From a virus (lineage: Duplodnaviria > Caudoviricetes), in the IMG/VR virus record IMGVR_UViG_3300037067_001739, positions 70,398-134,397 of that record: 64,000 nt of DNA; one strand, 5' to 3'. Under the pieces are notes generated by a model. The model saw only the letters and a list, made by a program, of their open reading frames with translations, was not told the origin of the DNA and made no database searches. The number at the start of each line of letters is the position of its first letter. Position 1 is the stretch's first letter. The position numbers were made by a program, and so were the translations under genes. Shown in pieces: positions 902-46,087 of the stretch.

Positions 902-1645
902 TTATTCTTCGTAACAATAAAATTTTTGTTTGCAATTCTTACACTTGCTATCGTCTTTCCACCATGCTTCACAGACAGCTTTGAAGCTATTCATTTCTGC
1001 CAGTATGGGTTGGATATTGGCATCTTTCTTTACAGGAGTTGCGATAGCCAAGGTCAACTGCTTGTCAACATGCTTATGGGACAAAGCTTTGGTGACCACT
1101 TCTTTGATTTTATCCCGAATCTCTTTGCCTCTCGGAGTATTTTTTCCTCCGCTATGAGCAATTGCCGCTGGATGATAGGTGATGATTACGTCATATTTGC
1201 CCCTGAAAGTAAAGCCAGTTCCAACAATATCTTTCATTGCAACTGACTTCTCACCCCCAAGAGCTATGTACGGAACTTTGCCCATACAGACAATAATGCT
1301 TGGGTCAAGATTCTCAATCTCGGTTATCAATCTCTCATTACACCATTTGATTTCTGCGTCTGTCGGTGTACGATTGTATGTCTTGCCTTCGACCACCTTA
1401 GTAGGTCTACAAGTAACAGCGTTGATGTAATTCCCATCGTCTCTAGTGCCACCACATTCCTCAACGATTTCGTTAAAGTCCTGCCCTGCAACACCAACCA
1501 ACGGTTTGCCATCCTGAGCTTCATGATAGCCTGGAGCTTCGGCAAGATAGAGAATCTTGGAACTTTCGTGCAACTCCGATGGAACAAATACCGCTTTGAC
1601 TAGCGTACACTCGTCACATTTTCCATTAGGTGCTTTACTTGTCAT
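902..1645 (-). CDS. udg: Uracil-DNA glycosylase, family 4 (Fe-S type), with C-terminal variant tag motif
   Basis: AEAPG, GKPLVGVAG, CRP..NRTP and YHPA motifs; N-terminal CxxC; tail CKNCKQKFYCYEE. Confidence 0.9.
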   Translation of the reverse strand: MTSKAPNGKCDECTLVKAVFVPSELHESSKILYLAEAPGYHEAQDGKPLVGVAGQDFNEIVEECGGTRDDGNYINAVTCRPTKVVEGKTYNRTPTDAEIKWCNERLITEIENLDPSIIVCMGKVPYIALGGEKSVAMKDIVGTGFTFRGKYDVIITYHPAAIAHSGGKNTPRGKEIRDKIKEVVTKALSHKHVDKQLTLAIATPVKKDANIQPILAEMNSFKAVCEAWWKDDSKCKNCKQKFYCYEE

Positions 1646-5563: not shown

Positions 5564-6127
5564 TCTACTGCAACTTTGGCTTTCTTTAAGACTGCCATGA
5601 CTCGTTCCATTTCGGGTGCAACGGACTTTTCATCCCAAACAGGATAATCTTCGCCGTCACCCCGTTCCGTGTAACGAGATGTGGAGATGATTGTGTTGAC
5701 GATGGTGTCCAAATCTCCCGCCATATATGCTTTCTTATCTCCGTAACCCTTGTTGCTTTCATTCTCCAAGCACAGTCTCCACACGATGTGCCTGACAAAT
5801 GCTGTCATGTTATAACGGAGGGCGGAATCGTGAGCATCTAACACATTCTCCAATTTGTCCAGTAAATCTTTACTTGCTTCTGACAGACTTACGAGTTCGC
5901 TTCTTTTCACCATCTGGTTTGCCATCCTTATCTGTGCGTGGTAGATTCCATATACTCCCGAATGGTTTATTTACTTCAAGATAGCGGATGAAATGCCCCC
6001 AATCGGTAGTATCTTCTCCCCAACCCATGAATTTCTTGAGGTCATTCTTTGCCTTGGTATAATCGTCATAGATACCAAGGATTTCGCCACCCTGAGACAT
6101 TGTTATGTTATGTGCTACGTACATTTT

Positions 6128-7150
6128 TTACCCAAAAGAGTTACAAAATATTTGCATCACTTTATCTGAATAGGTATAATGTGGTATGGTTATCTTATCA
6201 AATGTACCAATATTGTGCTTGCTTACAACAACCAGTGCTTCTTCTTCGGAATTGCCATATGGTACTACCTTACAAGGATACTTACAAGTTCCCACAAAAT
6301 CGTCAATTTTTGTTGCCAGTGAGATTGAAGTTCTGGTATGTTTCGGTTTGGTTATGGTAACTACCAAGTCAGAGTTTGGGTTATACCGCTTAAACCTATT
6401 GACAAAATCAGCAGTTTGAAATCGTATGCTGTAACCGTCTACTATGGCAACACTTTTGTCAGTTGACCCAAATTTTGTCTTTGCACCATCTTCTAACCAT
6501 TCTAGCACTTTGATACCCAAGCTTTTACCATACTCTGAGACCTGTTTAAGCTGTGCATCATCAATAGTGTTTGCTTCAACAAACTCTATATCAGCTTTTT
6601 TGCAGTAGTCTAGAAATACCTTAGTATTTAAGTCTTTCAGTTCGTTCCCTAGCAATCCTATGATTGCCCCGATTGATATAAGGTATCCCTTATTTGCCCT
6701 TGGAAGTCTGGTCAATATCTCGGATAACCTGACAGCTTTCTCCACTTCTCCTTTGCCACATATAAATGGGTGACTCAATCTGTTTGGTGTCTTTGTATAC
6801 GTGGACATATGAAAATCTGTGAGCCTACTAACTATCTGGTAATCCTTTAATTCACTTGGAAAATGATTCCTGACGATGAAGTATTCATCCACTATACGCT
6901 CTAATAGTGGTATAATTTGTGTCCACTTTGTTGCGTATTGAGTACCATTCGTCTTATATTGCCGCTTTTCGGTTTCAATACCATCAATGAGCAGTATAAA
7001 AGATGTAATCACTGGTGTTTGCAATTCTACAGGAACAATATCCTCTAATCGAGCAAGCCGATTGAGGTCATGCTTCGACACTGCCTCACCTGTCAATGGT
7101 ACTGACTTTTTATTGTATAGGTCTGAAATAAATGTTGAAAAATAAGCCAT
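6128..7150 (-). CDS. Hypothetical protein (340 aa)
   Basis: Long ORF abutting its neighbours; no motif recognised. Confidence 0.6.
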   Translation of the reverse strand: MAYFSTFISDLYNKKSVPLTGEAVSKHDLNRLARLEDIVPVELQTPVITSFILLIDGIETEKRQYKTNGTQYATKWTQIIPLLERIVDEYFIVRNHFPSELKDYQIVSRLTDFHMSTYTKTPNRLSHPFICGKGEVEKAVRLSEILTRLPRANKGYLISIGAIIGLLGNELKDLNTKVFLDYCKKADIEFVEANTIDDAQLKQVSEYGKSLGIKVLEWLEDGAKTKFGSTDKSVAIVDGYSIRFQTADFVNRFKRYNPNSDLVVTITKPKHTRTSISLATKIDDFVGTCKYPCKVVPYGNSEEEALVVVSKHNIGTFDKITIPHYTYSDKVMQIFCNSFG

Positions 7151-8032
7151 TTAATCCTCGAATTGCTGGTATAGGTCTTTTGACACTTCCTCACATTCCC
7201 CAATATACCTACTATCATCAGCTATGTGCCGTATCGTGCGTTTTCGTTCATTATTCCTGTCGAATACATACATAGCTTGAGCAAACAATTCTCTTTTTGA
7301 TTGACGACCACTTGGAGCACGTTGCCCGCAACCATAGTCCTCAACGAACACGTCCTGTATAAAAGCCCTTGCTATGGGTGGTAGGTTTCTCAAGTCAACG
7401 TTGTTACTGTTCTTTGCGTACATTACCAGAGCCTCGTAAAGCTCAATAATATACTCTTTATTTTTGGGGTCTTTCAGCATCGAAAGAAGTGCCGCTTTTT
7501 TAATATAAGCATTACCCATAATAGGTGGTTGCTTGCCTTTCAAGATAAGTAAATCAACATCTTCTCCCAATGTTGCTTCCATTTTCCTAATAATGGTGGG
7601 ACTTACTCTGAACCTTGATTTCAAATCATTATAGATACTGTTATAAACTTCACAATGTTGGCGGTTAATTCGTGTTCTAACACTAGGACTTCTAGGAATG
7701 CCACTATCAACATAGTCGAATGCGTCTAATGGAACATTCCTTTGTACCAAGCACCGCACCTTAATGCGTGGATTTGTTTTTGACGCAATAACCACACCTT
7801 TCATTCTATGCTGTCCGTCTTGAAGTCTGCCGTTTACATCAAACATTATGGGGTCTGCGACATATGGATTCCACCGACCCTTTACCATATCCTCGGCAAG
7901 AGACTTCGCAAGACTATCATTCTTCCTTCGGCAATTTACGCTTTTGCCGTTTTCACCGATAGCTGACGCTAGATACCTAGAAGCCAACTCTGCGTCAATG
8001 TCCTCTACTGAAAAATTATCTATGTTAAGCAT
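7151..8032 (-). CDS. DGQHR-motif ParB/Srx-like protein
   Basis: DPIMFDVNGRLQDGQHRMKGV; start moved to ATG at 8032, downstream of AGGAAG. Confidence 0.7.
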   Translation of the reverse strand: MLNIDNFSVEDIDAELASRYLASAIGENGKSVNCRRKNDSLAKSLAEDMVKGRWNPYVADPIMFDVNGRLQDGQHRMKGVVIASKTNPRIKVRCLVQRNVPLDAFDYVDSGIPRSPSVRTRINRQHCEVYNSIYNDLKSRFRVSPTIIRKMEATLGEDVDLLILKGKQPPIMGNAYIKKAALLSMLKDPKNKEYIIELYEALVMYAKNSNNVDLRNLPPIARAFIQDVFVEDYGCGQRAPSGRQSKRELFAQAMYVFDRNNERKRTIRHIADDSRYIGECEEVSKDLYQQFED

Positions 8033-8037
8033 TCTTC

Positions 8038-8487
8038 CTACCTTTCTGTAAAACAACGAAATCTTAATTCACAAGTATCGCAATGCTTTCCGATTACCAA
8101 CTGAGCCTTTCCACCAGCTTCGTTAATGTTCTTTACGAGCTTGGACAATGTTGGTTTGGAAAGTCCGTCTTTCGGCGTTAAAGTGTGCGGTATAGCTTCC
8201 ACCCAATCTTTGCTCTCTTTCAAACCCCATGCGGTGGCATCTCTTACCGCTTTGATAACGTTTATTTTGTTCACACCCATGTCGAGAATCCTAGCGAGGC
8301 AAACTTGCTGTTCTGCTACTTCAGTGTTCTGAAGAATCATGACCTCTAGAATCTTCGGATACTCGCCATCGGATTTGATAAGCACAGCCTCAAGCCCTTC
8401 TACTTTGTTACCCACGACATCGTAGGAGTGCCAACCATTACCTACTGTGGTTTCGGTATGTGCTAACGTAAGCTTGAGTAAATCCAT
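8038..8487 (-). CDS. Ribosomal protein bL12 (L7/L12) C-terminal-domain protein with C-terminal tag motif
   Basis: NKINVIKAVRDATAWGLKESKDWVE...INEAGG matches bL12 CTD; ends CDTCELRFRCFTER; start at ATG 8487. Confidence 0.8.
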   Translation of the reverse strand: MDLLKLTLAHTETTVGNGWHSYDVVGNKVEGLEAVLIKSDGEYPKILEVMILQNTEVAEQQVCLARILDMGVNKINVIKAVRDATAWGLKESKDWVEAIPHTLTPKDGLSKPTLSKLVKNINEAGGKAQLVIGKHCDTCELRFRCFTER

Positions 8488-8668
8488 AAAAGTCCAACCT
8501 TTTCTAAAACTCAAAAACGGTTCGGGCAAAATTTGGGGAAACAAATTTTTGAAACTTCATTCTCCCCTGCGGAAGCAACCAAACTCGGTGTACTTTGACG
8601 TTGATGCCATTCACCAACATCCCACCTGACCAAATTTTGGTTGCCCAATCTTTGGAGTGACCGTAATG

Positions 8669-9082
8669 CTAGGCAGACATTTCGGTGTCAGTTGCTTCCG
8701 CTTTCTCAGTCCAACGCTTTGCAAGCTTGTCCACTAGAGCCTTATCCATGCAGATAAAGTATTTGTCTCTACAGTCAAGAATGTCATAATAGCGTCTGGT
8801 TTTCCACTCGCTCATTGAACCAACTATCTTGACGGCGGGGCATTTCCTGCAAGCGTAGAAAACACCACTTATTCTATCCCGATACGTGTCGCTATCTTTG
8901 GTATAACATTCGAATCTGGTTAAACATGTAGCGCACCCCTCTGGATGATATTTGCAAGGATGCCTACCTAGTGCGTCTTTGCACTTACCGACCTCGTACC
9001 AATCATGCTCGTCCTCGTGGCATAACTTGACTTCTTTCGGTTTCTGCTCTTTCTCTTTCTTTTTACCGAACATGAATCTCAC
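8669..9082 (-). CDS. Hypothetical protein with tag motif
   Basis: CATCLTRFECYT. Confidence 0.7.
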   Translation of the reverse strand: MRFMFGKKKEKEQKPKEVKLCHEDEHDWYEVGKCKDALGRHPCKYHPEGCATCLTRFECYTKDSDTYRDRISGVFYACRKCPAVKIVGSMSEWKTRRYYDILDCRDKYFICMDKALVDKLAKRWTEKAEATDTEMSA

Positions 9083-9093
9083 CCATCATACTC

Positions 9094-9122
9094 ATTATAG
9101 CATGAGCCTCACTCAGAGTCAA
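9094..9122 (-). promoter_or_regulatory. sigma70-type promoter, class A
   Basis: TTGACTCTGAGTGAGGCTCATGCTATAAT. Confidence 0.8.
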
Positions 9123-9540
9123 GCCCGTTTATTGCGCCCTTTCTTTCCGTGAAGCACTTAAATCTGTCATCACAAGAATCACAAAAAGTGGGTTTTTCAC
9201 ACTTATTTGTAATGCGTGGGTCATCCTTTGTTGCCTTGGTAAACCCCATGCAGTTATCTAACCACACAGGGTCAAAGTTGAAGGGATAGTTAAACCACCC
9301 ACTCCTAATCCCATGTTCGTTTGCCTCTATTTTGAGTCGCTTGTCGAACATAATTGGTAGTGCTTCTTTTCTTCCACCAGCCAGCATACCAATTAGACTC
9401 AACATTGGATTGTTGAGTAACGGTGCGTTATAGGGGTGGCAACATTTGCTGTGAGCGTCTCCTGGCACTTCCCCTCTCCATCTACATTCATAGCAATTCG
9501 GTTTATTCTTCTTCATCGAAAAAATTTCTCCATACAGCAT
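9109..9540 (-). CDS. Cys-rich hypothetical protein with C-terminal tag motif
   Basis: CDSCDDRFKCFT. Confidence 0.7.
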   Translation of the reverse strand: MLYGEIFSMKKNKPNCYECRWRGEVPGDAHSKCCHPYNAPLLNNPMLSLIGMLAGGRKEALPIMFDKRLKIEANEHGIRSGWFNYPFNFDPVWLDNCMGFTKATKDDPRITNKCEKPTFCDSCDDRFKCFTERKGAINGLDSE

Positions 9541-9822
9541 TACTCGGAGTCACTGGTTCGCCACACATACATGGTTTACCAGCACTAATTTCATAGTCAA
9601 CAATAGAATCACATCTAGGACAATAGGGAACGTACTGCTCACAATCTGCCACACAGACACGTAACTCATCATTTGTGACGTATCTCCATTTGCATGTTCC
9701 ATGTCCAGTATTGTCAAGGATACCATCATATCGCCACAAGTCTACGTACTCTTGACAATCCTCACAGAATATGAAGTCTTTACAAGTCATACCTCGAACT
9801 TCAATTTCTGTGTTGCCCTCAA

Positions 9823-10368
9823 TTAAGAAATCAGCACCCAATCGTCACCTTTGCCAATCTTAATACCACGAACAACAGGAACTTCCTCGATAACAGCGTC
9901 TTTGCCAAGTGGAAGTGCGACTCCCCACTGTTCAAATTCGTACCAGCTTGCGAGACCATAGCTGTCAAAATTGCCCTGCATCTTTTCGTAGATTTCCATG
10001 CCAGAATCTTCGCTGTTATCAGGGTCTTTGAGTACGATTAAGTTGATTGCTGATTCATCATTTGCCCACGCTCTTATTTCCATGTTATGCTCACGAGCGT
10101 AGTCTATGAGAATCTTTGCCTTGTCTGCTGTCCAGTTTCCTCTTAGATTTCCGAAAGCATGGTATGTGTATTGTGCAGGTGGATAGGTGCGAAACTGGTG
10201 CATCCTAGCCATAAATTTTTCGATACAATCCTTACCAGTATCAATCTCGACCATTCCCATATCTGCTCTGCCATCCTTTTCGATGGTGGGTTCGAGTTCG
10301 GGCGGAATTGGTTTCTCTGCAAGGACTATATCGTCATTATGGAGTATTTTAACTTTTTCAACTGACAT
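9823..10368 (-). CDS. Hypothetical protein
   Basis: 181-aa ORF in the co-directional gene run. Confidence 0.6.
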   Translation of the reverse strand: MSVEKVKILHNDDIVLAEKPIPPELEPTIEKDGRADMGMVEIDTGKDCIEKFMARMHQFRTYPPAQYTYHAFGNLRGNWTADKAKILIDYAREHNMEIRAWANDESAINLIVLKDPDNSEDSGMEIYEKMQGNFDSYGLASWYEFEQWGVALPLGKDAVIEEVPVVRGIKIGKGDDWVLIS

Positions 10369-10378
10369 TTTTTACTTC

Positions 10379-10489
10379 CTATAGGTCGTCTCTCATAGAG
10401 ATACACGCACCAAACTGTCTTGCACATGACAAGACAAATTCCTCAAAGGAGATTCCGTCTTTTATTTTATCAGTGTAACCAGTAGGCAT
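10379..10489 (-). pseudogene. Probable truncated remnant of an MPTGYT-start phage protein (36 aa)
   Basis: Manual translation MPTGYTDKIKDGISFEEFVLSCARQFGACISMRDDL*; I recall this N-terminus from much longer phage proteins. Confidence 0.4.
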
Positions 10490-10914
10490 TAGCTATAAGC
10501 CTTTCCCTCTTGGTCAACTAACCAGCCACAATCAGGACATTTGACATATCCCATTTTAACTTCTGGTTCTTCGACCCAATCGAACCTCATACCACAGTTT
10601 GAACAGGTGACAGTGTTGTCGGATTCCTCTATTAGAGTTCCTTTGCCTTCTTTGTCCACCATGTAACCCATGTTGAAGTTTCGCTGTTTCATGTAAGGCA
10701 ATAATTCTGTATCATCGTCATAAGAAACAACTTCAAGTAATGTGTCACTGTCAAGCAAAGCCAGTTTCTTGTCGGAGTATCCCATTGCATACATAGCCCT
10801 GCACAAAGTCATACCCAAGAAAAGTGACTCTGTGAGCACAGGAACTATTCCGTACTCTCGGCAGATAAATAGCATTTCAGGTATGTTAGTAGCACATTTA
10901 AGTGTCGTTATCAT
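10489..10914 (-). CDS. Hypothetical protein with C-terminal Zn ribbon
   Basis: CSNC...CPDC. Confidence 0.6.
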   Translation of the reverse strand: MITTLKCATNIPEMLFICREYGIVPVLTESLFLGMTLCRAMYAMGYSDKKLALLDSDTLLEVVSYDDDTELLPYMKQRNFNMGYMVDKEGKGTLIEESDNTVTCSNCGMRFDWVEEPEVKMGYVKCPDCGWLVDQEGKAYS

Positions 10915-11210
10915 CTTATTCGAACAAACTCCGCTTTCATTATATTATCCATCAATTGCCAATTTTTCATAGCAAACTTTGCAAATTTTGCAGGTGGTAC
11001 TTCCCCAAAGTCATATGTTAAGAGGTTGGGACAAGTCAACTCAAAGGTAGCCTCTACCAGAACTATGCTATTGTAAACATTTGAGATGTACCGAGATGTT
11101 ACCCTAAAAACCTTACTGGTTATGCACTGAAACCTCTTTGGGCATTCATTACAATTATCATTTATAAGATTTTTTATGGGTATTTGAATTACAATTCTCA
11201 TGTATCTCAA
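10911..11210 (-). CDS. Hypothetical protein with tag motif
   Basis: CNECPKRFQCIT. Confidence 0.7.
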   Translation of the reverse strand: MRYMRIVIQIPIKNLINDNCNECPKRFQCITSKVFRVTSRYISNVYNSIVLVEATFELTCPNLLTYDFGEVPPAKFAKFAMKNWQLMDNIMKAEFVRIR

Positions 11211-11406
11211 CCAGTTCTCTTTGTATCTGTCTATGGGCTAACTCAGTGTTGACGCTACGCTCTAGGGCGGGATAGTCCTCTTTCCATCTGCGGAGAACAT
11301 CATCAGAATATGGAGCGGCACATTTGTAATGTCTATCTGTCCAGCAAATGAATCGCTGTTCACAGGTGTTGCATACTTCTGGTGTGCCAACTAATTGCCT
11401 ATCTAT
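11158..11406 (-). CDS. Unannotated tag-motif reading frame lacking ATG/GTG/TTG start
   Basis: Manual translation from ATA 11406: IDRQLVGTPEVCNTCEQRFICWTDRHYKC...KKSYK*; fills the gap between 11210 and 11399. Confidence 0.6.
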   Translation of the reverse strand: MDRQLVGTPEVCNTCEQRFICWTDRHYKCAAPYSDDVLRRWKEDYPALERSVNTELAHRQIQRELVEIHENCNSNTHKKSYK

Positions 11407-11767
11407 CTTTGTAAATCCCCGCTTGTCTTAACTGGTTCAGGTCAAACTCTGCCTCACGATTAGTCCAGCAGATAAACCGCATATTGCAAGCATCGCACTG
11501 TGTTGGATAATTCTTGCACAGGATGGGGACTTTATTACCCCATTCTTTACTGCCGTCTACACCTGTAATAAGCCGACCCACACCGTCAACGGTTAGTCCC
11601 TCTCTCCGCAGAGCGTCAATATGCTTACATGTTCTATTGCCACGCTGGTTGAATATCCAACTTGGACAGTTACAGGAGAATAAGCCCTTCTCATCAACCT
11701 TTATCTTGTAGGTTCTCCTGCCATTGGAAGATGGGACTTCTGCAAAGAAATTGTATGTTTTGCTCAT
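11399..11767 (-). CDS. SWIM zinc-finger protein with C-terminal tag motif
   Basis: SCNCPSW...CKHI (SWIM) followed by CDACNMRFICWT. Confidence 0.75.
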   Translation of the reverse strand: MSKTYNFFAEVPSSNGRRTYKIKVDEKGLFSCNCPSWIFNQRGNRTCKHIDALRREGLTVDGVGRLITGVDGSKEWGNKVPILCKNYPTQCDACNMRFICWTNREAEFDLNQLRQAGIYKDR

Positions 11768-11768
11768 T

Positions 11769-12131
11769 TTAGTGCCTCACCAAATTATCGAATGGGCATC
11801 CAATCAGGACTCCCCAATCATCTGCCTCGTGTGACCCATAGTTATACTTGCCACAAGCTTTACATCTGAACTTCTCATTGAATGACACCTGTTGCCACTT
11901 CACCATAAAGACCTCTTTACAGTGCGGACAAAGCATAAGTTGGGTCTTATCTCGTTTGTAAAGTTCATCAACTACGAAATGTCGCCCCAACTCGCTAGGG
12001 TTCATCGTTACTTGTAGTGTGTCCTCTCTGACAGTATAACAAGCGTAACGCCACCTACACGTACCGCATTGTTCGTCACAATACGTGCTGGTGGCGTACT
12101 GTCCTGCTAGATAAACCTCTAGTTTCTTCAT
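11769..12131 (-). CDS. Hypothetical protein with tag motif and Zn ribbon
   Basis: CGTCRWRYACYT; CPHC..CKAC; start at MKKLEV just downstream of the 12141 promoter. Confidence 0.7.
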   Translation of the reverse strand: MKKLEVYLAGQYATSTYCDEQCGTCRWRYACYTVREDTLQVTMNPSELGRHFVVDELYKRDKTQLMLCPHCKEVFMVKWQQVSFNEKFRCKACGKYNYGSHEADDWGVLIGCPFDNLVRH

Positions 12132-12140
12132 TCTGCTATA

Positions 12141-12169
12141 ATTATAGCACGTGCCGCTTATGTTGTCAA
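12141..12169 (-). promoter_or_regulatory. sigma70-type promoter, class A
   Basis: TTGACAACATAAGCGGCACGTGCTATAAT. Confidence 0.85.
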
Positions 12170-12172
12170 GGT

Positions 12173-12469
12173 TTACTTTCTGTCGGTAAAACACTTAAAG
12201 CGATTGGAGCAGTAGTCACAAGCGGAGTCAAGTTTGTTGTGGTAGGCTTCATTACAGAATTGAGCAATCAACTCGGTGTTGCCACTACCATTGCTTCCAT
12301 GTGTCTTGTAGACTTTGACAATATCCTTGCCAGTCTCATCATCGTAGTAGCACTCAACCCTTGCACCCACACTCCATCCCCGAATGTGACCTGAGATGCC
12401 GCTGTCTTTACTACCACCCCTAGTTGCCGCACCACGATTACCCTGAATTTCCGCATAAAAGTGTGACAT
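12173..12469 (-). CDS. Hypothetical protein with C-terminal tag motif
   Basis: Ends CDYCSNRFKCFTDRK. Confidence 0.7.
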   Translation of the reverse strand: MSHFYAEIQGNRGAATRGGSKDSGISGHIRGWSVGARVECYYDDETGKDIVKVYKTHGSNGSGNTELIAQFCNEAYHNKLDSACDYCSNRFKCFTDRK

Positions 12470-12636
12470 TAAATGTTTTTACCTCGCTTCAAAGTTTGGT
12501 GCGGCAGGAAGTTTTAATTCCAGTTCCGCTAACCGTTGCTTGTCTTGCGGCGACATGGTAAGAGTACCCATTGTCTCTACGACTTTGAAATACTTCTTGT
12601 ATATCGCCACCATTTCGAGCAAAATTTCTTCCTTTG

Positions 12637-13170
12637 TCATCGCCAGAACCTCTTTGTTATTTTAGGATTTCTGTGGAACTTCTGAGGGTCTTGCTCGTAC
12701 ACTCGGCTTTCCTCTGGTTTGCCATGTTGGGAAGTGTAACACTTAAACCTATCAGGACAAGTGCCACAGATTTTCTCAACCTCTGCGTTGAGCTTTTCCC
12801 TGATTTCTGAATGGGGCTTACTCCTACAATCTTTACACAGGGGAATGATGAAATTGCAGGTATTCACTCCTTCGAATGTAAGCCGTTCAATGGTGGTAGC
12901 ATAGAGATTATCTCCCTTTACTAACCCACAAATAGCACACACTACCATACGTGACCGTTCACGTTCTTTCTTTCGGCATGACTCACATATCGGTTTGATA
13001 ACGGTATAGCCATTCTCTACCATCGTGTATGGTCTGACATTCTCGTGTACGAATCCGCAGGTAGAACACCAACCGATACGATGCTTGATAGCTTTCTTGC
13101 CGTCACGCAGGGGTTGTCCGCTGTTCCTTGACCAGTTGTTCATCATGCTATCACCTTCGTTGTTAAGCAC
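12637..13170 (-). CDS. Multi-Zn-finger hypothetical protein with tag motif
   Basis: Four CxxC pairs plus CGTCPDRFKCYT. Confidence 0.7.
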   Translation of the reverse strand: MLNNEGDSMMNNWSRNSGQPLRDGKKAIKHRIGWCSTCGFVHENVRPYTMVENGYTVIKPICESCRKKERERSRMVVCAICGLVKGDNLYATTIERLTFEGVNTCNFIIPLCKDCRSKPHSEIREKLNAEVEKICGTCPDRFKCYTSQHGKPEESRVYEQDPQKFHRNPKITKRFWR

Positions 13171-13709
13171 TTGAATCTGTTGTCACAATTGCCGCAATGG
13201 TTTCCCTCCCCAAGCGGCACTTCCTCGATACTGACTTTGATAAATTTGCCTGCGTGCATTTTGAAAATCTCCGTCAAGTCCTTGAATTTATCGTACTGAA
13301 CCACACCATAATGGCGGTTGTGTTCAGTCGGGAATACAGGACAACCAAGATAGTGAAACACTTCCATTATCCTGCCATGTTCATCATGGTCAACCTCTTC
13401 TTCGTCCTCGCCAACATAACCTTCGAGTGTAAGAGGTAATCCAGTTGCAAGCTGACTCTCAACGCCAAGCTTGGTACGCTTTACTAACTGGATATGCTTC
13501 CTAATCTCATCAATAGGTGGTTTTGAGTTGGTAAAATCACGCTGATACCCATAGGTAGTCAGCCACTTTTCAACCTTACTGATGGTTTCTTGCAATTCCG
13601 CAAGCTTGGTGATGAAGTATTCCCGTTCTGTTCCGTTCATGTTATTCACTCTTTTTGACGTAGTTAAACCCTTTGAGGACGCCACTGACAATCCATAGAC
13701 CGAGTTCAA
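13143..13709 (-). CDS. Hypothetical protein with C-terminal tag motif
   Basis: Ends CGNCDNRFKCLTTKVIA; start probably at MNGTER. Confidence 0.7.
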   Translation of the reverse strand: MNSVYGLSVASSKGLTTSKRVNNMNGTEREYFITKLAELQETISKVEKWLTTYGYQRDFTNSKPPIDEIRKHIQLVKRTKLGVESQLATGLPLTLEGYVGEDEEEVDHDEHGRIMEVFHYLGCPVFPTEHNRHYGVVQYDKFKDLTEIFKMHAGKFIKVSIEEVPLGEGNHCGNCDNRFKCLTTKVIA

Positions 13710-14032
13710 CGGAGAGTGCCTGAGCGTAAGTGATGGTCATGAAGCCGAAGATACTCGCAATTCCACCCCAAGCGAGCATAACCAACCATGCACCGAAAGC
13801 AAAGCAAGCCGCCACCAGTATAGCTACTAGCAGGACAATGCCCACCCATCCGAAGAAGCCTATGTCGTTCTTCCTCATTCCGTACATTTTGTTCTCCCTT
13901 CTTAGAGAAGTAATAGCAGTAAGAGCCACCAAGGACTGTACTGCACCGCAAGGTACACGGACAATCCTACGATGAACACGCACCACAGAAATGCCACCCA
14001 TATGTACTGCTTGAACAGTTTTTCAATCGTCA

Positions 14033-15976
14033 TTAGTCATTCTCCATAACAATTACTTTACCCAACTTGGGACTCCAGCCGTTGGTGTAATGCTCAGGTG
14101 TCATAACCCAAATCGTAGGACAAGGAATCTTCTTGGGATAGTCGCCAGCTCCATCGGTCAGATAGATGATACCGTCAATCTTACCCTTGAGCTTGAACTT
14201 TTCGCCATTGCTATTCTTGTATATCTTTTTCTCTACGAATTTGAACACAGGTACGAAGCTTGTACCACCGTAACCGTACCTCTTGATGCCCTGACCCTTG
14301 GGTGGTTTCTTCTTGTACTCTTGAACATGGGTTATATCCATATCGCACTCAACGTGCGTGATACCTACCCCTGCGGAGAACATAGCCCCGATTTCTTTCC
14401 AGAACATCGCAAATTCTTTGTCGTCAACGCTACCAGAGCTATCAGTCGCCACCACGAAATGTGCTTTCCTCTTGACCTTATAGCCAGGGAATGTGACAGG
14501 GAATCTTCGATTTAGCCTCTTTCGAGTGCTCTCGAATTTGGCGAACTCACGGAATCCATAGAACCTGCGGAGTTCGGATTTCCACGTGATAGTCTTGTGC
14601 TCAAGGCATTCATCCACAAGACCTTTCAACCATCCAGGCATATTTCCTTGAGACTTCTCACTAGCTTTATGGACAGCTTTCTTGACCATTTCCTTGATTT
14701 TCTCGTGAGCCATTTCACGATTATCACTACCTGCCGCCCACACTTCGTGATTGTCCATCGGCATCGGGATGTCAATTCCATTTACCCGAACATTGCAACC
14801 GCTACCAGTCTGCGGCGATTCTTTCTGTTCCTGCTCACCCTGACCATCGCCAGAACCTTGACCCTCGTCTTGTTTCTGCTCGTACTCTCCGTGACCGCTT
14901 CCACCTTTGCCCAATGACTGCTCATTAGCTTGTCCTTGAGAGCCAAGACTACCTTGGTCTTTAGCTTGACCTTTACCATTCTGACCATTGCCAGAGTCCT
15001 GTCCACCACCCTGCTGACTGCCATCAGCACCTTGTCCAGTCTGCTGACCTTGACCACCACCAGAGCCGCTCTGCTGTTGACCCTGTTGGTCGCCACCTTG
15101 TCCCTGTCCCTGTCCCTGTTGGTTTCCAGACTGACCTTGCTGACCACCCTGTCCGCCACCTTGCTGAGACTGCTGACCCTGTTTACCAGCCTGACCACTT
15201 TGTCCTTGTGACTGCCCCTGCCCCTGCTGGTTTTGCTGTCCCTGTTGCTGTTGTCCTTGCTGACCATTGCCATTCTGGTCAGACTTACCCTGACCCATCT
15301 GTTGCTTCGCCGCACTCTCTTGCTTACCAGTGATAGAGCTACCGATTTCAATGACCATCTTCGGAACTTTCGCCCAAAGAACATCATAGTATAACTCGGA
15401 AGCTTTTTCCTTGTCGAGAGTTATCTTGTTATTGCCGACTCGGAAGTTATTGTAGTCCAACGTCTCGAATTTATGAGCCTTCGGGTCAAGGTCTTTATTA
15501 CAAAGCGGGCAATTCTTACGGAACTGTCCCGTTGCGGTTTTACGTACAAAGACGTTACAGTCTGGACACATTAGCCCACTCGGTAACCCCTTAATGTACT
15601 GGTTGATTGCAATATCATTAGCCAGATTCCAGACATAGTGATTACGCCCCTCAACCCTAAGCAAGTGTTTGTTAAGAATGTGAAGAATCTCATGCTCAAG
15701 GCACGCAATCTTTTCCTCTTGGGTCAGTCCCCAAGAATGTGCGGAGGGGTTTGCTTTGTCGTAGTCGCCAGAATTGTAGAAGTCAGTATTGATAAACAAA
15801 TGAGGTTGTAACTCATTGCTTACCATAACTGCCATTGTGCGGACAATCTTACCAGCACCATCTACGCAATTTTTTCCGCTTACGCTGTGCCTGCGGAACT
15901 GCTGGAGAAGATGCCCATAAAAATGCTTATGTTGTAGAAGCAATTCAATTACTTCGGGTTCGATAAGTTCAGCCAT
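14033..15976 (-). CDS. Metallopeptidase-like (HExxH) plus VWA domain protein (DUF2201-type) with Gly/Gln-rich linker
   Basis: LEHEILH, WNLANDIAIN, DSSGS MIDAS motif, GGTSF, YLTDG; adjacent to MoxR ATPase. Confidence 0.85.
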   Translation of the reverse strand: MAELIEPEVIELLLQHKHFYGHLLQQFRRHSVSGKNCVDGAGKIVRTMAVMVSNELQPHLFINTDFYNSGDYDKANPSAHSWGLTQEEKIACLEHEILHILNKHLLRVEGRNHYVWNLANDIAINQYIKGLPSGLMCPDCNVFVRKTATGQFRKNCPLCNKDLDPKAHKFETLDYNNFRVGNNKITLDKEKASELYYDVLWAKVPKMVIEIGSSITGKQESAAKQQMGQGKSDQNGNGQQGQQQQGQQNQQGQGQSQGQSGQAGKQGQQSQQGGGQGGQQGQSGNQQGQGQGQGGDQQGQQQSGSGGGQGQQTGQGADGSQQGGGQDSGNGQNGKGQAKDQGSLGSQGQANEQSLGKGGSGHGEYEQKQDEGQGSGDGQGEQEQKESPQTGSGCNVRVNGIDIPMPMDNHEVWAAGSDNREMAHEKIKEMVKKAVHKASEKSQGNMPGWLKGLVDECLEHKTITWKSELRRFYGFREFAKFESTRKRLNRRFPVTFPGYKVKRKAHFVVATDSSGSVDDKEFAMFWKEIGAMFSAGVGITHVECDMDITHVQEYKKKPPKGQGIKRYGYGGTSFVPVFKFVEKKIYKNSNGEKFKLKGKIDGIIYLTDGAGDYPKKIPCPTIWVMTPEHYTNGWSPKLGKVIVMEND

Positions 15977-16036
15977 AACACTCCTTATTTGATGGGTGCA
16001 GGAATGACGTTTGCCACTCCCGCACCCTGATAAATT

Positions 16037-17212
16037 CTAGCCGATGTCACCCTTGCGTGCATGTTTGAGGATTGCGAACAGGTCGTCACGGTGGAGTAAA
16101 AGCCTGTCATTAACCGCAGGATTTAACGCAAGGTCTTTCAGAACGGAGAAAGCCAAGTCCTCTGGAAGCATGATGAAGAAGTCACCGACATTGTTTAACT
16201 GCTTATCCGTGTACTTCTCCGCCTTTGTGCCAGAGAGACAATCGTTGATTTCATCGAGCGTAATCCTGAGCAGGTCAAATCTGGTATTGCCCTCGCCAGC
16301 TTCGATTTGAGAGACAACCCTGTCACGCACCTTAGCGAAGTTGTTGAAGATTTCCTGTGCCTTTATCGGTTTGTCAAGGTCGGTCTTGAGGGAATTGACG
16401 AAGCTGATTGCCGCAGTCGCACCAATTACCGTCTCCGCAACCTCTGCCCAATATTTGCGAGGTATGGTGTCACCGCTTAACAGTTTGTGCAGGAACTCGT
16501 ATGCACGAGGCGTTGGTGCGATTTCAATAGGAATGTCAATCGCATCATTGCCGAGGAATTTTTCTTCCATTGAAATAAAGTCTATAATATCCTGCATGAC
16601 TTTCTTTTCACGTGCCCACTTTAACCAGTTGCTCGTGGTCATAGCAAACTTGATATGCACGAACCTGTTCATCAAAGCGGGGTCAATTTCCTCGACATTG
16701 TATTCCTGTCCAGTGCCAGCATCGGAACTTGGGGGATTACAAGCGCAGACAATCGGACAGTTATCGGGAATTTTGTGCGTGTGTATTCTACGGTCAAGCA
16801 CAATCTGGAATGCCGCTTGCTGTACGTCAAGTCTCCCACGATTAAACTCGTCAAAGAACAGAGCACGTTTCTCGCCGTCAGTCGGAAACCATGATGGGGG
16901 TAACCACACCATTTTACCGACTATAGGAATCTTTGCCCCCTCTTGCTCACACATCGGACAGTGAGTGAAGCGAGCCGAGAACCCATACTCCGTATGACAT
17001 TTTGGACAATAGAAGCTTGACGCAGGATGCCCGATTAAGTCACCGACTTCCATCTGACCGAGACGAAGGTCTATGACTTCGTAGCCAAGTTTCTCGTACA
17101 CATCACGGACAACTTGACTTTTACCGATACCATGCTTGCCCCATAGCATCGGTGTGAGTCCAACTTCGCCACAACGCTTTAAGATAAGCTGGACAAGTTC
17201 AAGATTTTCCAT
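16037..17212 (-). CDS. MoxR-type AAA+ ATPase with Zn-ribbon insertion
   Basis: GKHGIGKS (Walker A), FFDEFNR (Walker B), ACNP, DPALMNRF, PTPR. Confidence 0.85.
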   Translation of the reverse strand: MENLELVQLILKRCGEVGLTPMLWGKHGIGKSQVVRDVYEKLGYEVIDLRLGQMEVGDLIGHPASSFYCPKCHTEYGFSARFTHCPMCEQEGAKIPIVGKMVWLPPSWFPTDGEKRALFFDEFNRGRLDVQQAAFQIVLDRRIHTHKIPDNCPIVCACNPPSSDAGTGQEYNVEEIDPALMNRFVHIKFAMTTSNWLKWAREKKVMQDIIDFISMEEKFLGNDAIDIPIEIAPTPRAYEFLHKLLSGDTIPRKYWAEVAETVIGATAAISFVNSLKTDLDKPIKAQEIFNNFAKVRDRVVSQIEAGEGNTRFDLLRITLDEINDCLSGTKAEKYTDKQLNNVGDFFIMLPEDLAFSVLKDLALNPAVNDRLLLHRDDLFAILKHARKGDIG

Positions 17213-23196: not shown

Positions 23197-24354
23197 TCAT
23201 TCTCCACCTGCCTTAAAGTTGTACACAGGTTTCATCATGAAGTCAATTTCCACTGTCTCCCCGATTGCCTCTACGATTACGTCTTTGTCCTTATATGCCA
23301 TCGGAGATTCGTCTATTGTGTCAATCGTTGCGGTTGTGGTATAGATACCTTCCATTTCGGATTTGAATTCATCCATCGAGAGTGTCTCTTTGGCTTTCCT
23401 TCTGGACAGTATCCTACCTGCACCATGCGGTGCGGATTCGTTCCACTTAGTATTTCCCTTGCCAGTACAGACTGCAACACCGTCTCGCATATTGAACGGA
23501 ATCACTAACCGTTCTCCATAGTGTGCCGATACCGCACCTTTCCTGACAATTTTATCCTCAAAATTGATGTAGTTATGGACTGTTTCAATGGCGTTGGAAT
23601 CCCAGGCAGACTGTCCGAAGTAACTCAGGATAACTTCTGCCATGACTCCCCTGTTCATCTTTGCGTAAAGCTGTGCTATCTTCATTGCCTCAAGATAACT
23701 TTCAGCTCCGAAGCCAATCGGTAGATACTCAAGGTTCTTGTAAGCGTCAGCCCCAACGAACATGGTCTTGAGCAATTCTTTAGCTTTGCTTTGGTAGTGG
23801 TTTGCTACCCGCAACCCGAAATTCCTGCTACCCGAATGGATGAGAAGCCAGTATTCTCCCTCATCCGTCTGGTCTATTTCGATGAAATGATTACCACCAC
23901 CGAGTGTCCCGATTGAGCCAACAACCTTGGACTGGTCTTGACCTGTGACTCCTGCCAATCCGATAACATCGGACATTCCTTTGCCAAAGTAATCCTTGGG
24001 TTTCTTACCAGTCACCATTTTTTCATCGGTGCTTCTAATGTTGAAGCCACTCGGAACATTCTTCTTGATAAAAGTATCCAGTGCCTTGAAGTCAATGCTC
24101 TCTGCTTTCAATGGGTAAGCAAGCACTCCACAGCCAATGTCTACCCCCACAACGTTAGGGATAACGTACTCATTCATCTTGGCAGTAAAACCTATTACCG
24201 CACCAGCACCAGCATGACAATCTGGCATGATAGCGATGTAGGTATGAGCAAACGCTGGATGATTGAGGAACGAGTAGATTTGGCTAATTGTTTCTTGGTC
24301 TAGTTCGTCAATCATGACGTTTGCCGAATTGTATTTTCCTCTAAATGTCTGCAA
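23197..24354 (-). CDS. rtcB: RtcB RNA 2',3'-cyclic phosphate/5'-OH ligase
   Basis: MPDCHAG, VGVDIGCG, GTLGGGNHFIE, IHSGSR, HNY, SAPHGAGR, DESPMAYK. Confidence 0.95.
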   Translation of the reverse strand: MQTFRGKYNSANVMIDELDQETISQIYSFLNHPAFAHTYIAIMPDCHAGAGAVIGFTAKMNEYVIPNVVGVDIGCGVLAYPLKAESIDFKALDTFIKKNVPSGFNIRSTDEKMVTGKKPKDYFGKGMSDVIGLAGVTGQDQSKVVGSIGTLGGGNHFIEIDQTDEGEYWLLIHSGSRNFGLRVANHYQSKAKELLKTMFVGADAYKNLEYLPIGFGAESYLEAMKIAQLYAKMNRGVMAEVILSYFGQSAWDSNAIETVHNYINFEDKIVRKGAVSAHYGERLVIPFNMRDGVAVCTGKGNTKWNESAPHGAGRILSRRKAKETLSMDEFKSEMEGIYTTTATIDTIDESPMAYKDKDVIVEAIGETVEIDFMMKPVYNFKAGGE

Positions 24355-31883: not shown

Positions 31884-34306
31884 TTAACCATAGATTGCCT
31901 CACCAAAGAGACAGCATTGCAACCACACGTCTGCCGTTATAGCATCATCATCTTCTGCCAAGAAATCGGAGAAGTGCTTCGGATATTTTTCTGCCATAAC
32001 CTCTGTTCCCTTGCGGATAGCTTCTAAATCCAGAGTGTACTCTTTGCCATCATCTTCCTCTTGGTCAATGAAGGTAAGACTGCCACCCTTGAACGGTAGC
32101 TCTACATGGGCGAACTCGATTCCCAGGCTTTCCTTGGTTTGCCCTTCGGGGTAGTTGAACTCTTTGATAAAATACCAGTAATTGCTACCACCCTCAAGGG
32201 CATTGGTTAGAATGTCTTGTAGTCTTTGCTCTGCCACTTCTAGATTAACTTTTATGTTCATTGTTGTTTGCCACTCCTTATTCGTTTTTTTTATGCCAAT
32301 AATGGATTAGTGTCCCATCTATCGCCCTCTCTACCACAACGATAGTCTTTGAGTCTTTGCCAGACTGGAGCACCATTGTTCTCATCCGAGTACAAAAGGT
32401 ACTCGTTGAGCGTAATGCCATTCACCCTGTCCATCAGAAGATATTTCAATCCGTAGAAGAACAGGTGACTTGGAAGCCCGACCAGAAACCTTACCGTCTC
32501 TTTCCAATCGGCTTCTTTGTGAGCATCAATTCTGGATACATCACGCTCACATGACTTGCAATATTTGCCGTTGCTTGTCTCGACTCCGCATACCTTACAG
32601 TTTGCCATTGTTACTCCTTCCCTAGCCTTTTCTTTAGCTCCTGTCTCGACCTAGCCAATCCTTTCGGGTTGCTGACAGGTTGTGATTTGGCTTTACCTGC
32701 GAATGGGTCTGGATATTCCCACCAGTAATAAGGTTGATTAACTCTGTCTGCCTCAACCCTTTCCCTGTTTTCCTTTGCCTTACGTTCATCATCCACCATG
32801 ATGCTCATTGCAAGCCCCCGCTTTCTCAACATCCAACAGATTTGCCGACTCCTTGCACTCAGGGCATCGTAGCGGGTCGTCAGGTTTGTTGGTGGCGAAT
32901 TCATATTCCGAAGCTTTGAAACCACAATTGCCACACTTTATTAGCACATCACAATAGACTACCATTGCCTACTCCTTTACCAGATTAGTAATGTCGTTGG
33001 CGCAGAACGGACACTCGATACCTTGGGTATCAAGCACAGTTTCAACACTACCATAATTAGTAATGTTGCCGTCTTCATCAATGTCAGCTTTCTGAAGGCA
33101 TTGTGAGTAGACATTGACGCTGTTAAGGTCTTTGCCGCATTCTGGACATTTCATTTAAGCCCCCATTCTCCTTTCCATAGCTTCTTCAGCCATTATTTCC
33201 CTGTACGCATCTGATGCCTCAACATCTTCTTCATACAGATTGTGGGCTACGTCAATTGCTTGCTCTTCCCTAGTGCCCACTGGAAGTTGAGTCACAGTCT
33301 CTCTGCCAGCTTTATCTTTGTGGGTGATGTTAAAACTGACTTTGAATGAAGGCTCATCATCTTCACCGCCATACCAATGTCTGACGATGGTGACAACAAC
33401 ATTGCCCTCATCCTTGGTGAAGAATGTGTGCCTTGAATCTGGTAGGTCAAACCCATAGTCTTTTACCATCGGTAGCTCCTTTCCTTGCCGTATTACCTTG
33501 TTACTCTTGATGTGGATATTCGCCCGTTTCCTCTGGTTACCTTGATACTCCAGCCTCGGTCTTGCTCTGTGACATTGATGTACTTTAGGTTATTTGAACG
33601 GTGGCGTTTGAAGTGGATTTCAAACCGTACTTTAATTGGTACGTTATACCTACCTAGCACATCATACCACTTTAGCCTCTCGTCAAGAGCTTTGTTTACA
33701 TCGCTGGAATCAATGTAGAACACATCAGCATCAGTGCCTTTGTTGTCGCACAACCAGAGCGTGCCAGTGGATACGTCACCAGTCAGAGTGTCAATCTCTC
33801 TGGCAATCCGATAGGAGACATTACCCATGTCTCTCTGGCGTTTGACTTCATTTTGCTCTTGGCGAGTGCTATCCTCGTTACGGATAGCTTTCGCATCTGC
33901 CTCATCCATAACTACACCCCTTCTTTGATTATTCTGCCTTGGTTGACATCAACGCCAGTCAGGTGAGGTTTGTCGGTGAGGAAGTTAAGCAGGCTCTTCC
34001 GAGTCTTGTACGCTTTGGCTACGCTGTAATCATTACGGATTGCTTTGAACGGCGTGACCTCAACGACATGACCAGTAAGAACTCTAGGCTCTTTCCTGAA
34101 CATGGACTTATGCTCGACACAATGGCGACAATAGTTGTAATTGTCCATCGGGTTTAAGCCTTTGGTCTTGCATACGCACCGACTTTGCCTCAACCAACCT
34201 TCGCTGTCCTTGCGGATGTCGGCTGGGTCTTCGTACCCACGAGACGGGCAAACATTGTTAAAATAGTAACCGTCACAGTGGAATACTTTGTCTGGTCTTT
34301 TTGCCA
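31884..34306 (-). other. Run of about seven small hypothetical early genes
   Basis: Tightly packed minus-strand ORFs 31884-32261, 32291-32608, 32611-32934, 32969-33154, 33155-33469, 33493-33909, 33912-34306; several have AAGGAG SD sites. Confidence 0.6.
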
Positions 34307-44044: not shown

Positions 44045-46087
44045 ATGAGAGTAATTAAACGTGATGGTAGAATTGTAAAATTCAACCCCGACAAGATAGT
44101 TCTTGCCGTTACGAAAGCTATGAAGTCTATTGGGTGTGTGGATGATTCCATTGCCTCTAGTGTATCAGAAAAAGTGACTGATAGCCTCAACGGTAACAAA
44201 GAGATTTCTGTTGAAGAGATTCAAGACAGGGTAGAGAATGCTCTAATCCAGCTTGGTAATGCTCAACTTGCCAAAGCTTATATATTGTACAGAGCAGAAC
44301 GGGCACAAGTTCGTGGTTTCAGAGAAGCCATTGGTGTAGAATCCGATGATTTGAAACTAGGTATGAATGCTCTAGCATTGCTTGACAAGAGGTACTTGAA
44401 GAGCTTCAATGGCAAGAAGGAATCGCCGTCTCAGATGTTCAAGAGGGTGGCGAAGCACGTGGCTTCAGTAGAGAAAAAATGGGGTGGTGACCCCGACTAC
44501 TGGAGTAAAGTTTTTTATAACCTAATGGCTAACCAGATGTTTCTTCCTAATACACCATGTCTCGCCAATGCAGGTAATAAGGATTTGAACTACCTGTTTG
44601 CTTGTTATGCGTTTGAAGTTGGTGATTCTATGGAAGACATTTTACAGACTGCAAAAGACTGTGGTATGGTTCAGAAGACTGGCGGTGGTGTCGGTCTTAA
44701 CATCTCTAAACTAAGACCTTCTGGTGATAAAGTTAAGTCAACTGAGGGTGTTGCTAGTGGACCTATTGACTTCATGAGAATTTATGATACCATTAGTGAC
44801 GTTATTAAGCAGGGTGGAATTAGACGTGGTGGTAATCTAGGTTTATTGCTAGTTAACCATCCAGATATTATAGACTTTGTTAAGTGTAAGAATGACGAAA
44901 CACATCTAACCAATTTTAATATTTCAGTTGCCATGACTGATGAGTTTATGCGTTGCGTTGAATCTGGTGAAGATTTCGAACTGATAAACCCTAAAGATGG
45001 CAAAGTATCTACTAAAGTAAACCCAAGGCACTTGTTCCGCTTTATAGCCGAATCTGCTTGGCGAAATGGAGAGCCTGGGTTTGTTTTTTGGGATAAAATA
45101 GAGGAAGACAATCCAACTCCGAACCAAGGACATCTTATTAAGAATCTTTGTGGTGAGCAGGATTTACTTCCGTATGAAGCGTGTTGTTTGGGTTCTATTA
45201 ACTTAGTAAAGTTTGTCGAGGATGGTCAAATAGTGTATAACTCACTTAGAAAGGTCGTTCACCACGCTGTAAGATTCCTTGACAATGTTATTGAGTCCTC
45301 AGACTATCCTTTAGATAAAATTAGCGATAAGGTACATAACAATCGTAAGATTGGACTTGGTGTAATGGGTTTTGCCAACATGCTGTTTGAGTTAGGGATA
45401 CCTTATGATTCAGAGGAGGCAGTAAATGTAGCCGATGATGTCATGAGTTTTATTAGTAATGAAGCCAAGAAGGCTTCAGCTAAATTGGCTGATGACAGAG
45501 GAGATTTCCCCGCTATTACTGATTCTACTGTGAAATCTCCTAGACGTAATGCTACACTGACCACTATAGCTCCTACTGGTAGTATTAGTATCATAGCTGA
45601 GACATCAAGTGGTATAGAACCCATTTTTGCTATAATCTATCAGAAGACCAACATTCTTGAGAATAATACTTTCTTTGAGGTAAATCCAGTATTCGAAAGT
45701 ATTGGTAAGCGTGAGGGATGGTATTCTCCTCAACTTATTACTAAAATTATAAAGAATGGTGGAAAAGTGTCTGGAATGGCAGAGATACCTGACAAATGGC
45801 AGAAGGTGTTCAGGACGGCACTTGAAATAACTCCAGAATGGCACGTTAAGATGCAAGCGGCATTTCAACGCAATGTTGATAACGCTATCTCAAAAACAAT
45901 CAATATGCCTTATGAGGCTACTGTAGAGGATGTTGAGAATACAATACTACTAGCATACAAGCTCAACTTAAAGGGTCTCACCGTATTCCGTAATCAAAGC
46001 AGGACAAAGCAGGTTCTCGAAACATTGTGTCCAGAGTGCGAGGATGGTGTTTGTCCGATAGTCCCACCTGAAGAAGCCACACAATAG
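44045..46087 (+). CDS. nrdJ: Class II (adenosylcobalamin) ribonucleotide reductase with N-terminal ATP cone
   Basis: VIKRDG ATP cone; PNTPCL, QGGIRRGG, GEPG, NLCGEQ, CCLGSINL, IAPTGS, ISKTIN, KGLTVFR; no beta-subunit gene nearby. Confidence 0.88.
   Translation: MRVIKRDGRIVKFNPDKIVLAVTKAMKSIGCVDDSIASSVSEKVTDSLNGNKEISVEEIQDRVENALIQLGNAQLAKAYILYRAERAQVRGFREAIGVESDDLKLGMNALALLDKRYLKSFNGKKESPSQMFKRVAKHVASVEKKWGGDPDYWSKVFYNLMANQMFLPNTPCLANAGNKDLNYLFACYAFEVGDSMEDILQTAKDCGMVQKTGGGVGLNISKLRPSGDKVKSTEGVASGPIDFMRIYDTISDVIKQGGIRRGGNLGLLLVNHPDIIDFVKCKNDETHLTNFNISVAMTDEFMRCVESGEDFELINPKDGKVSTKVNPRHLFRFIAESAWRNGEPGFVFWDKIEEDNPTPNQGHLIKNLCGEQDLLPYEACCLGSINLVKFVEDGQIVYNSLRKVVHHAVRFLDNVIESSDYPLDKISDKVHNNRKIGLGVMGFANMLFELGIPYDSEEAVNVADDVMSFISNEAKKASAKLADDRGDFPAITDSTVKSPRRNATLTTIAPTGSISIIAETSSGIEPIFAIIYQKTNILENNTFFEVNPVFESIGKREGWYSPQLITKIIKNGGKVSGMAEIPDKWQKVFRTALEITPEWHVKMQAAFQRNVDNAISKTINMPYEATVEDVENTILLAYKLNLKGLTVFRNQSRTKQVLETLCPECEDGVCPIVPPEEATQ

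Follow-up and report, generated by a model that had tools for sequence, protein, structure and literature searches.

The window analyzed in this study, a stretch of 64,000 nucleotides, covers the final 64 kb of a record of 134,397 bp from an uncultured phage; the whole genome is referred to as G000. As judged from GC skew and open reading frames, genes lie on the minus strand up to approximately 34 kb of the window and on the plus strand beyond. Genes for ribonucleotide reductase, terminase, and portal are located at 44-50 kb. ORF 8038-8487 encodes a protein in which a beta-rich N-terminal domain is followed by the C-terminal domain (CTD) of bL12 and then by a C-terminal cysteine motif. Copies of this 12-residue motif, called tags below, are also present in neighboring small genes and in a family-4 uracil-DNA glycosylase (UDG). 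The features are summarized in Table 1.

Table 1 Positions of the tagged genes and their features in the window.
Feature	Position	Strand	Details
bL12-CTD protein	8038..8487	-	149 aa from ATG 8487; TTG 8544 would give 168 aa
Cys motif CDTCELRFRCFT of the bL12-CTD protein	8047..8082	-	Residues 136-147, then ER and the stop codon
bL12 C-terminal domain	8089..8304	-	Residues 62-133
Cys63, start of strand beta1, proposed fourth metal ligand	8299..8301	-	Cys invariant among close orthologues
N-terminal beta-rich domain, ~61 residues	8305..8487	-	Not the bL12 N-domain
Run of small genes, ten with one tag each	8038..13709	-	ORF starts 8038, 8669, 9109, 10911, 11158, 11399, 11769, 12173, 12637, 13143
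Tagged ORFan, 143 aa	9109..9540	-	Tag CDSCDDRFKCFT at 9148-9183, Cys at -7
SWIM-like 122-aa protein	11399..11767	-	CxCx(n)CxH at ~11618-11677; tag CDACNMRFICWT at 11462-11497
Tagged ORFan, 98 aa	12173..12469	-	C-terminal tag CDYCSNRFKCFT at 12185-12220
Family-4 UDG, 247 aa	902..1645	-	Own Fe-S cysteines C10, C13, C79, C102, plus a C-terminal extension
UDG C-terminal extension, ~45 aa, QPILAEM...C..WW....CKNCKQKFYCYEE	905..1039	-	Variant tag at 908-943; own fourth Cys at -10

A sequence-only reading of this DNA had quoted cysteine tails on the bL12-CTD protein (CDTCELRFRCFTER), on the UDG (CKNCKQKFYCYEE), and near the end of the ORF 11399 product (CDACNMRFICWT), and all three are present as quoted. 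The bL12-CTD protein terminates in GKHCDTCELRFRCFTER and the UDG in SKCKNCKQKFYCYEE, each directly followed by the stop codon. In ORF 11399-11767(-), the tag occupies residues 91-102 of 122, and an extra Cys lies at -7. The SWIM label given to this protein is weakly supported. The CxCx(n)CxH pattern (CNCPSWIFNQRGNRTCKH) is visible, but the PF04434 score was below the cut-off (12.6 against 19.6 bits; E 0.018) and hmmscan returned no match. The tag of the SWIM-like protein is kept by its orthologues in 6/6 phages, and the ESM Atlas contained no usable look-alike of the tag region. In one sister phage (G005:C1:146192-147625 (-)), the counterpart of the SWIM-like protein makes up the C-terminal portion of a longer product of 477 aa, whose tag lies at residue 445. 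Only a few kb from the SWIM-like gene, at 14033-17212 (-) of the window, a DUF2201 metallopeptidase/VWA-like protein (647 aa) adjoins a MoxR-like ATPase (391 aa), a neighborhood that resembles the cellular SWIM/MoxR/VWA gene trio.

The CTD assignment of the ORF 8038-8487 product was obtained by Pfam, Foldseek, and alignment to E. coli bL12. In the 149-aa form, Ribosomal_L12 CTD (PF00542) matched residues 69-130 with 48.9 bits (E 8.4e-13; cut-off 25.9), and Foldseek matched only the CTD (E. coli bL12, 1ctf; TM 0.75, 43% identity). The CTD helices NKINVIKAVR and GLKESKDWV are nearly unchanged from NKVAVIKAVR and GLKEAKDLV of E. coli, the two helices that contact IF2, EF-Tu, EF-G, and RF3. Regarding the other end of the protein, the proposal that a bL12 dimerisation N-terminus is lacking agrees with our results. 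No other Pfam family was matched at E<=10, so no bL12 N-domain was recognized, and AF2 with ten orthologues placed four beta strands in residues 2-53 (pLDDT ~70), for which Foldseek found no PDB match. By the criterion of an N-domain and hinge, the product is thus a bL12-CTD domain protein and not a stalk protein. In the AF2 model, the CTD reached pLDDT 76-88 and the tail stayed below 50, too low a confidence to judge its packing on Cys63.

The cysteine motif and the phages that carry it

The motif reads C-x2-C-x2-R-F-x-C-[FWY]-T, and the consensus of 247 copies is [DE]-K-C-[DNE]-x-C-x-x-R-F-x-C-[WYF]-T-x-[RK]. A search for the protein pattern C..C..[RK][FYW].C gave 26 copies in the window and 51 in the whole genome of 134,397 bp, always in coding frames. 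A DNA pattern for C..C..RF.C, limited to R and F at positions 7 and 8, recovers 22 of the 26 window copies, where 100 shuffles gave an expectation of 0.01. Among the 51 copies of the genome, the Cys codons TGC/TGT were used 21/30, 13/38, and 23/28 times; the corresponding counts were 25/26 for TTC/TTT and 38/13 for AGR/CGN, and Thr third positions also vary freely. The DNA flanking these copies contained no information. Because synonymous positions are free and the flanks uninformative, selection acts on the protein and not on the DNA; the motif is under protein-level selection.

Tags were present on 11-20% of the proteins in each of six genomes, as estimated from crude gene calls. The tagged proteins are small (median 109 aa), and their genes all lie outside the structural gene block and adjoin one another approximately twice as often as under random placement. 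One copy per protein was found in 246 of 247 cases, the remaining protein having two. The tag lies anywhere from residue 3 through the last residues and is often internal or extreme N-terminal; in 89 of the 247 proteins it lies within 12 residues of the C-terminal end. Once the tag was masked, the tagged proteins of the six genomes fell into 155 BLAST-unrelated families, and the 46 of G000 alone into 44 (BLASTP E<0.01). Pfam and PHROGs recognized almost no tagged protein beyond the UDG and the bL12-CTD protein, and neither assigned a common family to the 26 tagged proteins of the window and the 23 others of G000. Among ortholog groups, 34 were fully tagged and six were mixed; decayed tags in the mixed groups include a C-to-Y change at the second cysteine (G002) and a degraded copy at 45067-45399 of the G000 genome.

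The tag window was also modeled by AF2 with a 140-sequence alignment. Confidence was best at the motif (~80), where the model shows a CxxC turn leading into a short R-F-x-C-W-T helix. VIA-align of the 45-residue model against 48,161 PDB chains gave no match at Z>=2, the fragment being too small. Literature searches retrieved no published description of the motif.

The strict DNA version of the motif matched only approximately 12 IMG/VR contigs. Five of them are 134-153 kb long with many motif copies each, and four of these five have terminal repeats or ~100% estimated completeness. For comparison, we used six genomes, namely G000 and five sister phages (G001-G005); the motif occurs 26-52 times in each sister genome, compared with 0-1 occurrences of a control pattern read in reverse. 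In 596 Gb of prokaryote genomes, 23 single matches were found against approximately 17 estimated by chance, most of them in short spurious frames. The sole prokaryote-genome match with two tags, located in 1.8 kb, was a contig of a Rhodobacteraceae MAG (PUNI01000206.1), which is probably a related phage contig binned into the MAG. Sequencing runs containing window DNA were groundwater and landfill metagenomes, with no RNA dataset among them, and window positions 6000-14000 had no megablast match in 50,697 phage records. The motif is thus restricted to a clade of uncultured phages of ~134-153 kb from groundwater and landfill. An RtcB tRNA-splicing ligase is encoded at 23197-24354 (-) of the window (PHROG E 5e-127), and an RNA ligase (PF09414) lies near the bL12 gene in sister contigs; both fit a heavy phage investment in RNA repair and translation.

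Cysteines of the carriers and the history of the tag

We compared the cysteines of tagged and untagged proteins. A cysteine outside the 10-mer of the motif was found in 246 of the 247 tagged proteins of the six genomes, and 140 of 813 untagged proteins of 60-200 aa had no cysteine at all. The commonest cysteine count of tagged proteins is exactly four. The fourth cysteine lies 1-12 residues upstream of the motif in 149 of the 247, with peaks at -4, -5, and -8. At least four cysteines were invariant in 33 of the 34 fully tagged ortholog groups, and the invariant count was a multiple of four in 26 of them (four in 17, eight in 5, and twelve in 4); 47 of 93 untagged groups had any invariant cysteine. 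Within ortholog groups, the tag and the extra cysteine near it keep their positions. The generic hallmark of Cys4 sites, four conserved cysteines per site, is therefore found in tagged proteins, and the counts suggest that many of them may hold two or three such sites. The view of the tag as a free-standing portable module is not supported: the 12-mer never occurs alone, a fourth cysteine being present in the same 246 proteins and 33 groups. Since this cysteine always comes from the carrier, the 12-mer would be part of a putative metal site built into each protein. The two ORFans singled out for homologue comparison agree with this conservation: orthologues of ORF 9109 in G001 and G004 retain the tag and the upstream Cys, and the tag of ORF 12173 is retained in its G005 orthologue.

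The bL12-CTD proteins were examined across a wider set. Among close orthologues with 57-67% overall identity, HCDxCELRFRC[FY]TER followed by the stop codon is invariant, and the tag is better conserved than the remainder of the protein. The N-termini of the sister proteins differ: a CxxC...CxxC zinc-ribbon-like sequence in G003, a heptad-like, coiled-coil-like helix in G002, and another sequence in G001. The constant unit across sister phages is the CTD with its putative clasp, and the N-terminal module is swapped. An HMMER scan of 1.84 billion protein representatives with the bL12 CTD yielded 1,553 matches, of which the best 150 were examined. The tag was found in 16 of these 150 clusters, always C-terminal and directly after the CTD, and was absent in 134. 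PDB bL12 also lacks the tail. Many of the untagged top matches contain 2-7 tandem bL12 CTDs in proteins of up to 953 aa, unlike canonical ribosomal bL12.

A cysteine at the start of beta1 was present in 20 of 22 tagged bL12 representatives, offset by -69 to -76 from the tag, and in 14 of 16 tagged cores compared with 24 of 289 untagged cores. The two tagged representatives without it carry a Cys at -4/-5, as do the orthologues in G001 and G002, so that this compensation rests on four sequences. The exchange of the beta1 cysteine for one at -4/-5 is the most specific evidence that the tail may fold back and share a metal with the CTD. In a quick tree, the tagged bL12 proteins fell into five groups, but a single clade was not rejected (p-AU 0.52; 59 rows, simpler model); one old fusion therefore suffices as an explanation.

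The UDG assignment is based on PF03167 (E 3.8e-20) and on the PDB family-4 UDGs 1l9g/1vk2 (E 3e-17). CxxC, VxCRP, and C102 align with family-4 enzymes, AEAPG and HPA are present, and the four cluster cysteines are intact. The C-terminal extension is present in G000, G003, and G005, and the UDGs of G001, G002, and G004 stop before it with KQ[LF]xL[LF] as the last residues. Among 62 close homologues, the extension QPIL.EM...C..WW....C..CKQKFYC with the tag was found in 19, and the tag was absent from 43, one of which is truncated inside the extension. The others are ~200 aa long, as are the solved family-4 UDGs, and PDB members of the family lack the extension. A single clade of tagged UDGs among the 62 was not rejected (p-AU 0.34). 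In G001, G002, and G004, a small tagged ORF of 64-131 aa abuts the stop codon of the untagged UDG, which suggests that fusion with tagged mini-genes was one route of spread; by eye, no similarity was detected between the UDG extension and these downstream mini-ORFs. In G002 (G002:C1:74971-76476), an intein-like insert of ~300 residues splits the UDG orthologue precisely within the conserved VTC|RPT motif, with the junctions VTC-LTNP and HHN-CRPT and a frame that is open except for one TGA reported by the search.

The sequence-only reading had stated that canonical bL12 and family-4 UDG lack such tails and that the tag was added secondarily. Both statements are consistent with our survey, in which the PDB members and most homologues are untagged, the tail is not routine in either family, and only a phage subfamily of each carries it. 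Secondary acquisition of the tag by the bL12-CTD protein and the UDG is thus supported by the comparison of homologues. A single clade is compatible with the tagged set of bL12 and likewise with that of UDG, so the co-occurrence of cysteines reflects few independent events.

A putative metal clasp and its relation to known systems

Taken together, it is probable that the motif provides three ligands of a Cys4 metal site and that the carrier supplies the fourth, forming a clasp that resembles the Cas4/AddB staple. The presence of a metal, its identity (Fe-S or Zn), and the geometry of the site are our inference. Such a clasp would pin a tail or loop onto the carrier protein. In ORF 8038-8487, the tail would most likely close onto Cys63 at the start of beta1 and clamp the base of the CTD, a part that presumably lies away from the factor-binding helices. 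In the UDG, the clasp may have been gained within a C-terminal extension of 45 residues that brings its own fourth cysteine. No IscA/HesB-type Fe-S assembly protein (PF01521) was found in the phage genome, so the Fe-S version gains no support from such a gene. Conservation at R7, F8, position 11 (aromatic), and T12 exceeds what is usual in a purely structural metal knuckle, and these residues may have a second role, for example in partner recognition. Because the factor-binding helices are conserved relative to E. coli bL12, the proposal that the protein sequesters or relocates host GTPases is reasonable, and capture, sequestration, or relocation of translational GTPases would be one option for its function.

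Other explanations were weighed on the same data. The motif, metal-folded or not, might serve as an address label, a handle read by one shared phage or host partner that would gather approximately one-fifth of the non-structural proteome at one place or under one control (turnover, localization, or loading). This would account for the single copy in 246 of 247 proteins, the strong conservation of the non-ligand R, F, aromatic residue, and T across 155 BLAST-unrelated families, the absence of the motif from the structural gene block, its enrichment at the C-terminus (89/247 within 12 residues of the end), and the functional diversity of the carriers (UDG, bL12 CTD, and ORFans). However, the conserved fourth cysteine of the carrier is predicted by an intramolecular site and is needless for a linear signal, the motif is often internal or extreme N-terminal, and no candidate reader was identified. 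We consider a label of this kind unlikely as the main explanation, and it can coexist with a metal clasp. A combined form appears improbable, in which the clasp, with Fe-S or labile Zn, would at the same time be a handle common to approximately one-fifth of the intracellular phage proteome, including a bL12 domain that would capture translational GTPases; these proteins would be switched on, stabilized, or docked together according to the metal and redox state of the host or through a shared reader. If true, the dual clasp and handle would be a proteome-wide, phage-specific system of tagging and regulation.

A further reading, which we rate as less likely than the label though above the combined form, concerns origin: one ancestral mini-gene was duplicated many times, the motif is its sole recognizable remnant, and bL12 and UDG gained it by fusion with a neighboring mini-gene. 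The side-by-side placement of tagged genes at about twice random expectation fits this history. At G004:C1:28069-35237 (+), approximately 20 tags are spaced 250-300 bp apart, and the two at 33711 and 34504 are identical over 30 nt, a sign that tagged mini-genes were recently duplicated in tandem. The tagged mini-ORFs (64-131 aa) abutting untagged UDGs in G001, G002, and G004 also agree with it, as do mini-proteins with little beyond the tag (e.g., those beginning MKCEECEYRFVCFT). In contrast, 46 tagged G000 proteins with 44 families after masking (BLASTP E<0.01), a tag placed anywhere from residue 3 to the last residues, and the lack of similarity by eye between the UDG extension and the mini-ORFs argue against a common core. 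Such an origin is compatible with a metal-clasp function. The probability of a DNA or RNA element (promoter, terminator, recombination or modification site) translated by chance is practically negligible. Its dense recurrence is confined to the coding strand, as might be expected of such an element, but every copy is in frame inside an ORF, synonymous positions are free, both Arg codon families are used, the flanks are uninformative, and orthologues conserve amino acids and not bases. The codon-position analysis of the 51 copies rules it out.

The metal clasp remains our preferred reading: rather than a free address label, the motif looks like a small metal-binding clasp undescribed before. 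Motifs made of a few cysteines tend to be passed over as ordinary zinc fingers. A single, sharply defined 12-mer carried by 155 or more BLAST-unrelated families, two textbook domains among them, would constitute a natural plug-in metal clasp. Such a module may account for the way in which large phages stabilize or co-regulate many small new proteins, and it would be a very small module for protein engineering. The bL12-CTD protein offers a concrete test object, a factor-binding domain off the ribosome, presumably clamped, in an RtcB-carrying phage, and it bears on how phages may interfere with host translation factors.

The spacing C-x2-C-x5-C is the ligand spacing of WhiB-like proteins, FNR, endonuclease III/MutY, and SPASM domains, and Cas4/AddB-type nucleases have it as well. 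Some motif copies read CxxCPVRxxC like WhiB, for example CDECPVRFQC at 40881, and in the SWIM-like protein the spacing C-x6-C-x2-C-x5-C equals that of endonuclease III. The Whib model (PF02467) gave no hit anywhere in the genome at E<=10, so that only the spacing is common to the two. A SPASM/twitch assignment (C-x2-C-x5-C-x3-C) was also rejected, as four residues past the third Cys, where C would be required, the chain has R/K or has ended. The host domains of WhiB, FNR, endonuclease III/MutY, and SPASM are all absent from the tagged proteins. Like the zinc knuckles and ribbons of small phage proteins, the motif has a CxxC turn within a putative Cys4 site, and many tagged proteins additionally carry ordinary CxxC...CxxC pairs. 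Unlike them, it has a single CxxC knuckle, a third ligand in a short helix, and a fourth at a variable position, and no Pfam zinc-ribbon model matches it.

The closest parallel is the staple of Cas4/AddB/Dna2 proteins, in which three clustered cysteines and one remote cysteine hold a [4Fe-4S] cluster essential for stability, and a relative of these proteins holds Zn at the same site (PMC3466216). In both cases three cysteines lie close together toward one end of the protein, the fourth is distant in the sequence, and the site pins, or in the phage proteins would pin, the chain together. In 149 of 247 phage proteins, however, the fourth cysteine lies only 1-12 residues upstream of the motif. 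The phage motif also differs in its specific R-F and aromatic-T residues, in lacking a RecB nuclease domain, and in having many unrelated carriers and not one enzyme family. Pfam recognized no nuclease family among the 49 tagged G000 proteins, which thus share with Cas4/AddB the one-plus-three arrangement of cysteines and not membership of the family. For the bL12-CTD protein, bL12-CTD proteins without the ribosomal N-domain are known from phages smaller than 80 kb, with no cysteine tail mentioned (Mizuno et al. 2019, PMC6375957). The protein described here resembles them in having a bL12 CTD without the N-domain, in variable protein contexts, and with the factor-contacting residues conserved. 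It differs from them in that the phage is 134 kb in size and the CTD of this clade is always accompanied by the putative clasp and a matching beta1 Cys.
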